Shown here in pieces: positions 16,805-22,588 of a stretch of DNA of 40,192 bases. Origin of the DNA: Anaerolineales bacterium (GTDB lineage: Bacteria > Chloroflexota > Anaerolineae > Anaerolineales > E44-bin32); assembly GCA_036477195.1 (NCBI GenBank), contig JAZGCZ010000080.1, forward strand, positions 1-40,192, read 5' to 3'. The stretch's first letter is position 1; each line of letters opens with the position of its first letter. The notes beneath the pieces were generated by a model. It made no database searches, was not told where the DNA came from, and saw only the letters and a list, made by a program, of their open reading frames with translations. Made by a program: the position numbers and the translations under genes.

Positions 16805-16833
16805 AAAAAGGCAGGTGCCCAGGCACCTGCCTT
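16805..16833 (-). terminator. Intrinsic terminator after rpmE
   Basis: Minus strand AAGGCAGGTGCC-TG-GGCACCTGCCTTTTT. Confidence 0.8.
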
Positions 16834-16856: not shown

Positions 16857-17330
16857 TTAGACCTGTGGCTCCTCTGAGAACTCGGGCAATACGAAACCAC
16901 GCGATTTCATTCGGCGCTTTAGATCCGACAGGCTCTTACGCCCAAAATTATCAATTTCAAGAAGCGCCATGTCACCCTGCTTCATCAACTCCAGCGCTTG
17001 GCCCACCTCTATGATCCCTGCTTTTTCAAGTGCGGTCTGCGCTCGTTTACCGATCTCGAGTTCTAGAATCGGGGTGTCAGGAGAGCTCTTGGATGCCTCC
17101 CGATCCTTCGCATCCTGAATGTATCCTTCTCGGGCCTCCAGCTTGCGGTAGAAGCGATCGACCTGACCCTCGGTATCAACGATGCGCTGCTCCCCAGTGT
17201 AGAAGGGATGACAATCAGAGCAAACGTCGGTGTGAATCATTTCGACCGTGGAGCCCGTTGTCCACGTGTTTCCGCAGGAACAAACCACCGTGGCCTCAGT
17301 GAAGTACTCTGGGTGGATTCCTGGCTTCAT
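16857..17330 (-). CDS. rpmE: 50S ribosomal protein L31 (zinc type A) fused to an RNA polymerase alphaCTD-like domain
   Basis: [36 protein letters not shown], then [20 protein letters not shown]...[17 protein letters not shown]. Confidence 0.95.
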
Positions 17331-17598: not shown

Positions 17599-18132
17599 TT
17601 AATCTTTCTTTGCTGCCTTCGGTTTGCCTGTGCTTTTCTTCGTAGAAGCGCTTGTGCTTTTCTTCGTAGAAGCGCTTGTGCTTTTCTTTGTAGATGCGCT
17701 TGCGCTTTTCTTTGTTGCAGAACTTTCGCTCTTTTTAGACGAAGTCTTGCCCGCGGCAGTCGTCTTGGATGAGGTCGACTTGCTCTTAGTTTCAGTTTTC
17801 TTCTTTGGAGGTGCCGTCGGCAATCCAACACTTTCGATCTCTACATGGGTAAGCAGCTGCCGGTGTCCCTGCGTGCGTCGATAGCGCTGCTTGGGCTTGT
17901 ACTTGAAGACCGTGATCTTCTTGCCCTTCGGATGGTCCTGAATCTTTCCCTTAACGCTTGCGCCTTTGACGAACGGCGCGCCAACTTCCACTTTCTTCCC
18001 ATCGGAGACTAGCAAGACATCCTTGAAGACGACCTGTTTGCCAACTTCAAGCGACATTCGGTCTACCTCAATGAGGCTTCCCTCCTGCGCCAGATATTGC
18101 CTTCCGCTGTGTTCGACGATAGCGTATTTCAT
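17599..18132 (-). CDS. rplU: 50S ribosomal protein L21 with Lys/Ser/Thr-rich C-terminal tail
   Basis: [37 protein letters not shown], followed by about 75 aa of low-complexity basic tail. Confidence 0.97.
17631..17726 (-). repeat. 24-bp coding tandem repeat (about 4 units, KKSTSAST) in rplU tail
   Basis: Units at 17631, 17655, 17679 and 17703 (TGCTTTTCTTCGTAGAAGCGCTTG; first two identical). Confidence 0.9.
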
Positions 18133-18161: not shown

Positions 18162-18191
18162 ATTATAAAGGCCGGCAAAACGCGGTGTCAA
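18162..18191 (-). promoter_or_regulatory. Consensus sigma70 promoter of rplU-rpmA-rpmE
   Basis: Minus strand TTGACA-18 bp-TATAAT, 29 nt before the rplU ATG. Confidence 0.8.
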
Positions 18192-18289: not shown

Positions 18290-21200
18290 TTAGTCAGCCG
18301 CAACCATTTCCGCCTCGGGAACCTCCACGACTTCGCCTTCTGGCTCTGGTTCTGGTTCTGGTTCTTCCTCTTTCGTCGGCTCGCGCTCACCATCTATGCG
18401 CTCGTCATGGAGCACGACTTCTTCGCCAGGGAAACCCGTTCCAGCGGGAATTAGCTTCCCGATTATCACGTTTTCCTTTAACCCTCGCAGGTAGTCCACC
18501 TTGCCTTCAATGGCTGCCCCGGCCAAGACCTTGATCGTGTGCTGGAACGAGGAGGCCGACAAGAAGGATTCGGTGCTTAATGAAGCCTTGGAGATACCGA
18601 GGAGAATTTCGGTGGATCGAGCGGGCGACTTCCCTTCCTGCAGGATTTGCTCATTCAGGCGCAGCAAATACCGGCGATCAATGAGATCACCCGGTAGCAG
18701 GTCTGTCTCCCCAGGATGCGAAATCTGTACCTTCGATAGCATCTTGCGAAGGATCACTTCGAAGTGCTTGTCATTGATGTTTTGTCCCTGCGATCGATAG
18801 ACCTGCTGAACTTCCGTCAACAGATAAAGCTCGCACGCCTCACGACCCAAAATCCGTAGAATGCGGTGCGGATTTAGCGAACCATCCGTCAATTGATCCC
18901 CTGCCTTGACCTTGTCTCCATGCTTCACGAGCAGCCGAGCGCTCGCCGGGACGTCGTAATCAACCTGATCGTTCAGTTCATAAGAGATCGTAACGACACG
19001 GTCCTCTACGTTGGCCTTGCCCCCATGGCTTGCCGTGATCTGCGAGTCGCCGCGGCTTGCGATAAGATCACCCGCCTCTAGCTCATCGCCGCTCTCGGTC
19101 TGGAGCGACCAATTTCCCGGGACTTTGTAATCATCATGCAGCATCTGACTGATTTCGATGTGAACAACCCGCTGTCCATCAGGGGTATCTGGAGTAAGGA
19201 TCTCAACCGTTCCTTCGATTTCGGAAGTGATCGCCTCACCCTTGGGCTTTTTCCGCGCCTCGAATAATTCTTCGACGCGGGGGAGGCCGGTTGTGATATC
19301 GGCACCGGCCGCAACGCCACCGGTGTGGAAAGTCCGGAGCGTCAGCTGTGTGCCAGGCTCTCCAATGGATTGGGCAGCTACGATTCCAACCGCTGCCCCC
19401 AGCTCCACCCTCTTGCCTCTGCCCAGATCCATACCGTAGCAATCAGCACAGAGCCCGAATTGCAGCTCACAGGTTACCGGTGAGCGAACTACAACTTCTT
19501 CAGGTAATGCGTCCCCGATTCGCTGAGCCGCCTTCCCGTCCAGCAACTTTCCGCGACGATAGATCACCTCGCCAGTACCTGGATCTGCCACGGCCTTAGC
19601 CAACACACGGCCAATCACACGCGAGGTAAAATCTTGACCGGCGACATCGTCGGCCGATCGCAGCACTATTCCTAGTTCCGTCCCACAATCTTCCGAATTG
19701 ATGATCACGTCCTGTGCAACGTCCACGAGGCGACGCGTTAGGTAGCCGGCATCGGCCGTGCGTAGGGCCGTATCCGTGAGACCCTTGCGGGCACCGTGAG
19801 TGGAAATGAAATACTCGAGTGTGTTCAAGCCGTCTCTGAAATTGGACCGAATGGGGAGCGGGATGATCCGGCCGGAAGGGTCGGCCATTAAGCCACGCAT
19901 TCCAGCTAGCTGTGAAATCGGCCCAAATCCTCCCTTGGTAGCACCGGATATGGCCATCACGCTTAGATTCCCAGCGGGATCCATCCCGGCTCGCACAGCG
20001 GCCGCAACCTCAGCTGTCGTCTCTTGCCATAGCTCGATGATGCGCTCATTTTGCTCTTTTTCGGTGAGCAGTCCACGCTGGTAGTCGCTTCGCACGGCTT
20101 CTGCCGCTTCCAACGTCCGCGCGACGATCTCACCTTTCTCTTCCGGTACAGTGATGTCTGACACCGAAATTGAGGTTCCAGATTGACTGGCGTAGGCGAA
20201 ACCAATATCCTTGATGGCGTCCACAACTGCTGGAGTGCCATCTTCTCGGAGTTGATGATAAATCTCGCCAACCAGCGCCTGCATGGCCTCCTTATCGAGG
20301 ACCTTGTTGACGAAGCGCAATTCCTCCGGAAGGACGCTATTGAAAATAACGCGACCCACCGTGGTGTCCACCACGCGCAACTCTGCATCTTCCATGCGAA
20401 CACCATCATCGTCATACCAAGTGGCGATTTGAAGCTTGATGGGAGCATGTAGATCGACTTGACGCAGGGCCCAGACCATCTCCACTTCTTCTACACTGGC
20501 GAAGGCTCGGCCTTCACCCTTCCGACCCTTGCCTTCCACCTGCATGGTCAAGTAGTACACCCCCAAGACCATATCCTTGGAGGGAGTCACAATTGGCTCT
20601 CCGTCCGCAGGCTTAAGCAGGTTCACGCTAGCCAGCATCAGTTCACGAGCTTCCGTAACCGATCGGCTGGATAGTGGCACATGCACCGACATTTGGTCGC
20701 CATCAAAGTCCGCATTGAATGCGGAGCATACAAGTGGGTGCAATTGGATAGCCTTGCCCTCCACAATGACTGGCTCGAAGGCCTGGATCCCCAGGCGGTG
20801 CAGAGTGGGAGCTCGATTTAGGAGTACGGGTCGATCCTTGATGACTTCTTCTAGAACCTCCCATACTTCCGGGCGCTCGCGTTCGATGATGCGCTTGGCA
20901 CCCTTGACATTGGCCGCATAGTTATAAAGCACCAATTTGGAGATCACGAACGGCCGATATAGCTCAAGAGCCATAGTCTTGGGAAGACCGCATTGATAAA
21001 GCTTCAAGTTTGGGCCGATCACAATCACCGATCGCCCCGAATAGTCCACGCGCTTTCCAAGCAGATTCCTGCGGAAGCGACCCTTCTTACCTTTCAGCAT
21101 GTCGCTGAGCGACTTCAACTCGCGGCGGCCTCGCCGCGAAAGGGCCTTGCCGCGCTGCGCATTATCAATAAGCGAGTCCACCGCCTCCTGGAGCATCCGC

Positions 21201-22588
21201 TTCTCGTTTCGAACGATGACGTCCGGTGCGCCCAACTCGACCAGCCGCTTCAGACGATTGTTACGGTTGATGACTCGGCGGTAGAGATCGTTTAGATCGG
21301 ATGTAGCAAATCGTCCCCCATCGAGCTGAACCATCGGCCGCAGGTCGGGTGGGATAACGGGCAATACGGTCAGAATCATCCACTCCGGTTTGTTCCCCGA
21401 CCGGCGGAAGGCCTCAACAACTGCGAGCCGCTTCGTGGCCTTTTTCCGCCGCTGCTTGCTCTTGGTGGTACGGACCTCTTCCCAAAGCTCGACCATGAGC
21501 TTATCCAGATCCAGGCGTTGAAGAATATCGTAGAAAGCTTCGGCACCCATGTCGGCCCGGAACACCTGCCCCCAGCTCGACTTCAGCTCCCGGTATCGGG
21601 TCTCGCCAAGAAACATCATCTGGGTTATGCCTTCGAGTTCCTCGCGCTCCTTCACCAATTCCTCGATCTGCGCTAGGTTTTCCTCCTGGGGAACACCCTT
21701 GACTTGCTCGATCTCACGATCCGCAACTTCTTTGACCTCTTCGATTTCCACCTCGACAATATCGACTTTCTCATCGAACTTCACCTTTGCGGAGGCTTCG
21801 ACTTTTTCCAGTTGTTCGCTAACGATCTTTTGAACGACCGCGATGTGATCCTTGGAGATCGTCTCACCCTTCTCGGCAATTTGCTGATCGACAGCTTTGA
21901 AAACGATTGACACGCGAATCGTCTTGCCAGACTTATCACGTAGATCGCGCTCGAGTCGCTGACCTTCTCGAATGATGGGGGCTATTTGCTCGGCGACTTC
22001 CTCTTCGTACGCTAACTTTAATGCCTTTAGCTCGGCCTTCAGTTCGTCTAGCTTTTCCGTCTTTTGAGTACTGATTTCCTCCAACCGCGCGTCAACCGCA
22101 TCATGCTGATCCTGCTGCTGGCCCGAGATCTGCTCGTCAATTCGCGCAATTGCTTTGCGGCGGGCATCCTCGTCGACATGCGTCACGATGTACTGTGCGA
22201 AATAGAGCACGCGATCCAGATTTCGCCGAGAAATATCAAGAAGCAAACCAAGGTAGGAAGGGACGCGGCGGGTATACCAAACGTGCGCTACCGGAGCAGC
22301 TAAAGTAATGTGTCCCATCCGCTCACGGCGCACTGAGGCGCGAGTCACTTCCACGCCGCATTTCTCGCAGGTAATACCTTTAAATCGGATGTTCTTGTAC
22401 TTGCCGCAGTAGCATTGCCAATCTTTGGTGGGGCCAAAGATCGCTTCGCAAAATAATCCGTCCTTTTCAGGACGTAACCGCCGGTAGTTGATGGTCTCCG
22501 GCTTCAACACCTCGCCATAAGACCAGCTACCTATGATCTCTGGCGAAGCAAGACTGATGCGTAACGCTCGAAACCTTTTAGATTCCAC
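18290..22588 (-). CDS. rpoC: DNA-directed RNA polymerase subunit beta'
   Basis: KPETINYR, zinc finger, [54 protein letters not shown] start with GGAGG RBS. Confidence 0.99.

Follow-up and report, generated by a model that had tools for sequence, protein, structure and literature searches.

A ribosomal protein bL31 fused to an RNA polymerase alpha-CTD-type domain in part of the Anaerolineae

The window analysed here, a stretch of 40,192 nucleotides from an Anaerolineales bacterium, carries on its minus strand a short ribosomal protein operon whose last gene encodes bL31 joined to a domain of the kind found at the C-terminus of the RNA polymerase alpha subunit (alpha-CTD). The first gene of the operon is rplU (L21; 17599..18132), the product of which has a C-terminal tail, some 75 aa long, with many Lys, Ser and Thr residues. 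It is followed by rpmA (L27; 17327..17587) and, directly downstream, by the fused gene rpmE-alphaCTD (16857..17330; 157 codons plus stop, ATG start), whose start overlaps the rpmA stop by 4 bases (17327-17330). The upstream neighbour on the same strand is rpoC (18290..22588; 1432 aa). Between rpoC and rplU we found a sigma-70-type promoter-like site, TTGACA-18-TATAAT (18162..18191, minus strand; 12/12), and beyond the fused gene a terminator-like hairpin (16808..16833, minus strand) of 11 pairs, 7 of them G-C, whose stem starts 24 bases past the rpmE-alphaCTD stop codon and which is followed by the T-containing tail TTTCGTATCT. The original prediction had placed rpoC just upstream of this operon, which is correct as to position, but the promoter separates rpoC from rplU. 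With a consensus promoter after rpoC and a hairpin after rpmE, rplU-rpmA-rpmE looks, from these signals, like its own transcription unit. Further downstream on the minus strand lie a thymidine kinase gene, a phosphoribosyltransferase gene and a CCA/poly(A) polymerase-family gene. The rplU-rpmA-rpmE order is found in 26 of 26 fused loci, with thymidine kinase next in 24 of them, and rpoC precedes in five of the six fused loci with long enough flanks. As a minor observation, the part of rplU encoding the L21 tail (17599-17830, minus strand) is made of repeats, including identical 22-nt stretches at 17630-17651 and 17654-17675.

The fused protein divides into four parts, all encoded on the minus strand. 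A zinc-type bL31 core occupies residues 1-63 (17142..17330) and matches Pfam Ribosomal_L31 (PF01197) over model positions 1-63 of 65 with 99.1 bits against a cut-off of 27, a genome search giving the same coordinates. Next comes a charged spacer of residues 64-85 (17076..17141), within a predicted long helix (53-81), whose length is 22 residues in all but one of the 33 family members aligned, and which has a conserved aromatic residue at 70 and a conserved S-P motif at 83-84. Residues 86-148 (16887..17075) form an alpha-CTD-like (HhH)2 domain with a 3-residue insertion specific to Anaerolineae at 116-118, and the protein ends in a short tail (residues 149-157; 16860..16886) of low model confidence in which P149 is nearly invariant. 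Pfam RNA_pol_A_CTD (PF03118) matches residues 78-142 with 36.7 bits against a cut-off of 23.8 (E 3.4e-9), and the fusion scores 38.5 bits in a six-frame search of the genome with the same model. Both NCBIfam L31 equivalogs score above cut-off (NF000612, 96.5 versus 70; TIGR00105, 90.3 versus 38.35), while matches to the NCBIfam RpoA models are limited to the last ~80 model positions with scores far under the cut-offs. A sequence search of the PDB likewise returned L31 chains for residues 1-66 and alpha subunits for residues 85-150. The cysteines C17, C19, C37 and C40 are all present and nearly invariant in the family alignment, in a CxC ... CxxC pattern that we take to be that of the zinc-type L31 ligands.

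The fused gene thus encodes a real two-domain protein, a complete zinc-type bL31 followed by a charged linker and an alpha-CTD-type domain, just as the original prediction had held. Since the Pfam scan of the fused protein found no match to the alpha N-terminal dimerisation and insert domains (PF01193 and PF01000), it is a member of the alpha-CTD domain family and not an RpoA. Compared with canonical bL31 of type A (PF01197, TIGR00105), it has the full core, the four cysteines, the status of sole copy and the rplU-rpmA-rpmE context, and differs in having 94 extra residues made up of the spacer, the folded domain and the tail. The solved L31 chains that were matched mostly have 45-97 residues and none carries such a domain.

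A whole-protein AlphaFold model (pLDDT 73.5) combines the L31 sheet with a single long helix (53-81) and five short ones. Because Foldseek with the whole 157-residue model returned L31 chains only, we folded the domain alone, modelling residues 81-157 with AlphaFold from an alignment of 24 family members (pLDDT 82.5, pTM 0.66). All Foldseek rows listed for this isolated-domain model are RNA polymerase entries. Isolated alpha-CTD entries (3n97, 3n4m, 3k4g, 1lb2, 1doq, 3gfk, 1z3e, 9dvt and 9zum) matched with a TM of about 0.7 (0.73) and rmsd mostly 0.9-2.8 A, the values over 62-69 columns being 0.9-2.2 A. In a VIA search of 48,161 representative chains the six best matches are all alpha-CTDs, with Z from 10.4 to 8.0 (1z3e_B 10.4, 4mex_A 9.7, 2max 9.3, 8w9z_A 8.8, 1doq 8.6 and 5vi8_T 8.0), and the domain superposes on 1z3e_B with an rmsd of 1.8 A over 66 residues. 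The next match is a chain of the human BCDX2 (RAD51 paralog) complex (Z 7.8), and mitoribosomal proteins also appear, with Z about 5. As modelled, the C-terminal domain has the alpha-CTD fold. It shares with the RpoA alpha-CTD this fold, the PF03118 match above cut-off and the 3-residue insertion, and differs in being joined to bL31 instead of the alpha N-terminal domain.

We then determined how widely the fusion occurs. In a search of 5.8 billion proteins, both PF01197 and PF03118 were present in all but one of the 120 best relatives, and these 119 proteins are 155-162 aa long; the one exception is a 124-aa protein with the L31 domain only. The source names of these relatives are Chloroflexota or Anaerolineales. 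In a sample of 401 genomes of the phylum, a full-length match is present in 34 of 34 genomes of the same order (one with a flagged TGA) and in 3 of 11 other genomes of the class, and there was no uninterrupted full-length match among the matches listed for the 355 genomes of other Chloroflexota classes. Six genomes in this sample are flagged as unpublished (G038, G272, G173, G344, G145 and G227), and none of the claims based on the phylum tallies depends on unpublished genomes alone. A second sample of 201 genomes of the class, including the source genome and covering 57 families, yielded 30 full-length matches in 11 families: f1, f2 (5/5), f5 (4/4), f9 (5/5), f94 (2/2), f97 (4/4), f104 (2/2), f119 (1/5), f124 (2/2), f125 (3/3) and f130 (1/1). 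This count includes G458 and G548, each with a flagged in-frame TAA, and leaves out a match in G573 with two TGA. The fusion thus characterises some Anaerolineae but not the class as a whole.

Several candidates for a wider occurrence were rejected. Two Dehalococcoidia loci (L018 and L021) that had shown long query coverage encode L31 proteins of 77 aa without a fusion, the matches having run past the stop codon, and a Gemmatimonadota locus (L078), likewise with long coverage, encodes an unfused 106-aa protein with an acidic tail. Twelve longer-looking matches elsewhere in the phylum, once fetched, proved without exception to be L31 proteins of 69-117 aa that lack the fusion; among 12 unfused Chloroflexota L31 proteins examined, 10 have a charged tail 25-50 aa long. 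Of the database proteins of 79-138 aa that scored high with a profile of the module we fetched 14, and 10 of these are fragments of L31 fusions or L31 fusions with miscalled starts rather than stand-alone modules; no truncated alleles were seen among these 14 besides fragments at contig ends. As a separate observation, the two fused L31 proteins of family f9 that were examined (L101:1498-1941 (-) and L102:1501-1944 (+)) are without all four zinc cysteines, which means that the module sits on zinc-free L31 too.

The fused gene is the organism's sole bL31. The source genome (52% complete, 224 contigs) has a single PF01197 match, and each of five relatives that are 97-100% complete (three of them single-contig) has one L31 gene, which is the fused one. 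The low completeness and fragmentation of the source assembly might by themselves raise the thought of a lost stop codon, a chimeric assembly or a functionless passenger domain. An artefact is refuted by the occurrence of the same reading frame in many independent assemblies, single-contig genomes included. Against a neutral passenger stand R96, L101, G105, G110, G119, L124, G130, L134 and K138, which are invariant or nearly so, and the fact that the L31 modules belong to a single clade of long standing (see below). We regard this whole family of explanations as scarcely credible. The fusion is real and under selection, as follows from the 119 of 120 relatives, the genome counts, its status as the only L31, the mean pairwise identity of 0.53 among the L31 modules and the constant spacer length. 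The two-domain architecture was already visible in precomputed Pfam annotation.

In order to trace the origin of the module we aligned 33 L31 modules with 46 distinct RpoA alpha-CTDs, 20 from Anaerolineae and 26 from other Chloroflexota classes. Five of 51 RpoA rows (L148, L133, L134, L135 and L125) had been dropped as identical or from the same place, and among the 46 is one from the unpublished genome G038. The RpoA of the source genome (contig C197) has all three domains and keeps its own alpha-CTD (71-74 bits), and the source NusA has an alpha-CTD-like C-terminal module of its own, described below. All 33 L31 modules have the 3-residue insertion (residues 116-118 in the source protein), and so do all 20 Anaerolineae RpoA alpha-CTDs, whereas none of the 26 RpoA alpha-CTDs of other Chloroflexota classes has it. 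This class-specific insertion, common to the L31 module and the Anaerolineae RpoA, indicates that the module is a duplicate of the lineage's own alpha-CTD. In a tree from which the insertion columns had been left out, all L31 modules fall into a single clade with a long stem (SH-aLRT 96), and 18 of the 20 Anaerolineae RpoA domains join it (support 87). The L31 module is only 0.29-0.40 identical to the RpoA alpha-CTD of the same genome (0.38 in the source genome), and over 45 matched genome pairs the identity of the L31 module is 0.52 as against 0.82 for the RpoA domain. Judged by these alignments and trees, the lineage's RpoA alpha-CTD was duplicated once, long ago, and the copy on L31 has since evolved faster.

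The DNA-binding surface of the E. coli alpha-CTD is known as the 265 determinant and comprises R265, N268, C269, G296, K298 and S299. To number the module accordingly we aligned residues 21-83 of the C-terminal piece of the query to residues 255-314 of the 329-residue E. coli alpha chain, which pairs residue 96 with E. coli 265 and residue 130 with E. coli 296; between these two points the module is three residues longer. The residue-by-residue match proposed earlier (R96 with R265, and G130-R131-K132-S133 with G296-K297-K298-S299) is borne out. At the determinant positions the source protein has R96, T99, A100, G130, K132 and S133. Across the family, R265 and G296 are each kept in 32 of 33 L31 modules, K298 in 26 and S299 in 23, as compared with 46 of 46 RpoA domains for each of the four. 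By contrast, N268 is kept in none of the 33 L31 modules and in all 46 RpoA domains, and position 269 is Ala in 27 of 33 modules but Cys or Ser in 45 of 46 RpoA domains, so that no L31 module has the complete determinant. Further replacements relative to RpoA affect K271 (8/33 versus 45/46), R293 (0/33, mostly Glu or Asp, versus 46/46) and N294 (6/33 versus 45/46). Aligned in this way, the canonical DNA-binding determinant is only partly kept in the L31 module. Acidic residues stand at E. coli position 259 in 31 of 33 modules and at position 261 in 25 of 33. New in the last helix are basic residues, which occupy positions 138, 139 and 142 in every one of the 33 modules and position 140 in 26. 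Position 139 is acidic in most RpoA domains, and in E. coli numbering position 305 has gone from acidic in RpoA to basic in the L31 module. The mean pI of the module is 8.0, compared with 6.9 and 5.9 for the RpoA domains; as the net charge is only slightly above that of RpoA, the idea of a basic domain shrinks to one helix.

This pattern of kept and lost residues bears on the possibility that unassembled L31-alphaCTD acts off the ribosome as a regulator, competing with the RpoA alpha-CTD for UP-like DNA or for activators and so feeding back on the supply of ribosomal proteins. Such a role would be in keeping with the derivation of the module from the lineage's own alpha-CTD, with the large degree to which R265, G296, K298 and S299 are kept, with the acidic residues at 259 and 261, and with the description of E. 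coli bL31 as an autogenous repressor in a review (PMC10931766). It is hard to reconcile with the loss of N268, K271, R293 and N294, which are invariant or nearly so in the RpoA of the same genomes. An Rfam search around the operon found no ribosomal-protein leader or other family, its sole match being a chance microRNA below threshold, and the 5' untranslated region after the promoter-like site is only about 30 nt. Altogether we consider such a regulator quite improbable.

The same kind of module is present on other proteins of the class. NusA of the source genome (L104:1-1878 (-), equivalent to G000:C5) is about 630 aa long (626 aa read) and has NusA_N, S1 and KH domains, followed at residues 436-492 by an (HhH)2 module with a weak PF03118 match (16 bits) and then by a long acidic tail. 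Long NusA open frames in two other families (562 and 623 aa) match PF03118 with 40.8 and 32 bits, and thirteen NusA modules of the class were aligned. A search of the class with the NusA module retrieved small frames in which a ribosomal protein is joined to a module of this kind. In family f87, L21 has a PF03118 domain at its C-terminus (L200:620-1219 (+) and L205:432-1214 (+), with 41.7 and 40.3 bits), and the 201-genome class sample contains 5 genomes with a full-length L21 fusion (f87, 3/3; f127, 2/2). L31 is unfused in loci carrying the L21 fusion (L200:1488-1724). S16 carries such a domain at L201:673-1218 (-), L202:1045-1563 (-), L203:1096-1617 (-) and L204:709-1206 (+), in families f107, f86 and f87, with 62.6 and 37.6 bits to PF03118 for the two that were scanned. 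Full-length S16 fusions occur in 6 genomes of the same sample (f86, three of f87, f107 and f127), and there are partial S16 matches in f101, f111, f119 and f123. RpoC of three other Anaerolineae families contains an alpha-CTD-like module that is inserted in Rpb1 domain 3, at about residues 725-797 (L206:2848-6000 (+), L207:2888-6001 (+) and L208:1-3795 (-)); PF03118 scores 30.4 bits in one and 22.2 bits, below cut-off, in the second, and the third is found by a custom profile only. No such insertion was found in the RpoC of the source genome, where a profile of all modules detects three copies only, on RpoA, L31 and NusA. S16 of the source genome (G000:C171:2978-3679 (+)) is without the HhH module; its tail of roughly 150 aa is strongly acidic, with an abundance of Glu, Asp and Ala.

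The L21 and S16 fusions have a plan in common with the L31 fusion, namely a ribosomal core, a spacer and a C-terminal PF03118 domain with the 3-residue insertion. They differ in that the host proteins take other places in the ribosome and come from families f86, f87, f107 and f127. Their modules also more often keep the R-V-x-N motif and have G-P-K where L31 has G-R/Q-K. All aligned modules have extra residues at the site of the class-specific insertion, two S16 modules being shorter there. A tree of 101 rows groups the accessory modules with one another (support 70) and nests them among the RpoA domains of the class (74-88), with weak resolution. The occurrence of alpha-CTD-type modules on L21 and S16 of other Anaerolineae families, on NusA and inside RpoC is new here. 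Their recurrence on these four proteins within one class amounts to several independent constructs and argues that the module matters to the organisms. A literature search (subscription journals mostly outside coverage) found no paper on L31, L21 or S16 fused to an alpha-CTD, and passages of PMC10931766 and PMC3353972 make no mention of such a fusion.

Run against 1.84 billion representative proteins, the L31-module profile retrieved 7,677 clusters with E up to 0.001, of which 804 reach 1e-10 or better. A Pfam scan of 18 such metagenomic proteins showed that several are arrays of up to 10-11 copies of PF03118, that 5 of the 18 contain Sigma70 region 4, and that 2 of the 18 contain a ResIII helicase domain, one of them together with an Mrr-type nuclease domain; one of the 18 is an RpoA with two alpha-CTDs. 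Proteins with such arrays or with DNA-handling domains include P0123, P0126, P0156, P0204 and P0221, some with a ResIII/DEAD helicase.

What the module does on L31 has to be considered from the position that L31 would give it. In a review (PMC10931766), bL31 is described as binding uL5 of the central protuberance with its N-terminal domain and uS13 of the 30S head with its C-terminal part. If the L31 core of the fusion takes its usual place as a bridge between the central protuberance and the 30S head, this contact of the C-terminal part with uS13 would place the (HhH)2 module close to the top of the head. There it could simply be a structural extension, attached to rRNA or to head proteins close to the C-terminus of L31, that strengthens or tunes the B1 bridge and the movement of the head and has no link to transcription. 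Several features would suit such a role: the constant length of the spacer with its aromatic residue at 70 and S-P at 83-84, the new conserved basic patch on the last helix, the partial loss of the DNA determinant, and the mitoribosomal proteins among the structural matches. In addition, the charged tails of 10 of 12 unfused Chloroflexota L31 proteins suggest that this site tolerates, and perhaps uses, extensions. The related modules on L21, S16, NusA and RpoC speak against it, as these have no common ribosomal site, and so does the conservation of R265 and the G-x-K-S hairpin, which a new rRNA site would not require. On balance we think a purely structural role possible, though somewhat unlikely.

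We favour, tentatively, a different reading in which the module would be a ribosome-tethered docking module for a partner that is not fixed to the ribosome. The likeliest partners would be DNA beside the transcribing polymerase or the NusA/RNAP elongation machinery, and either would hold ribosomes close to sites of transcription. That modules occur on three ribosomal proteins without a common site, and that related modules keep company with DNA-handling domains, favours off-ribosome docking over a structural role, and the retention of R265, G296, K298 and S299 in most L31 modules counts as support as well. A possible working model is found in the E. coli NusA coupling pantograph: passages of bioRxiv 10.1101/2020.03.01.972380 describe TTC-B, in which alpha-CTD-I holds NusA AR2, alpha-CTD-II holds NusA-N and NusA KH1 contacts S2/S5. 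The resemblance is in possible working only, an alpha-CTD-type module serving as a flexible tether between machines; the NusA of the source genome likewise ends in an (HhH)2 module. It differs in that the E. coli alpha-CTDs belong to RNAP while here one belongs to the ribosome. Counting against docking are the degraded canonical determinant (N268, K271, R293 and N294) and the faster evolution of the module as compared with that of RpoA. The constant spacer and new basic helix would fit a defined rRNA contact equally well. The fusion is also dispensable for the class, as 171 of the 201 Anaerolineae genomes are without it.

A broader form of the docking reading would treat the alpha-CTD-type module as mobile and present on both machines, that is, on RpoA, RpoC and NusA on the one side and on L31, L21 and S16 on the other, the modules binding each other or a shared partner such as NusA or DNA next to RNAP. 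The known route of ribosome-polymerase coupling in E. coli is NusG-S10, and modules on both machines, if this were true, would constitute a hard-wired link between ribosome and RNA polymerase that is independent of it. We regard this broader form as unlikely.

bL31 and the alpha-CTD are textbook parts of different machines, and a ribosomal protein that permanently bears a polymerase interaction module represents an unusual natural experiment. To our knowledge, transcription-translation coupling has not been studied in Chloroflexota. If the module reaches DNA, NusA or RNAP it would provide a lineage-specific means of keeping translation beside transcription, and if it binds rRNA it would show a DNA-binding module converted into a ribosomal element. 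The fusion is easy to test, given that the domain is small, is predicted to fold alone and can be deleted without touching the L31 core.

We also note some variation in the alpha-CTD of RpoA itself. Three single-contig genomes of family f21 (G047, G059 and G107, one genus, 95-96% complete) have no PF03118 match and a further one (G010) has a weak match only; their RpoA may have lost or strongly changed its alpha-CTD. In each of five genomes of family f22, which belongs to another class, PF03118 matches two frames (325-386 aa) that may both be rpoA genes. Some RpoA proteins (P0132, P0133 and P0154, two of them fragments) bear two alpha-CTDs in tandem, with the insertion of the Anaerolineae type.
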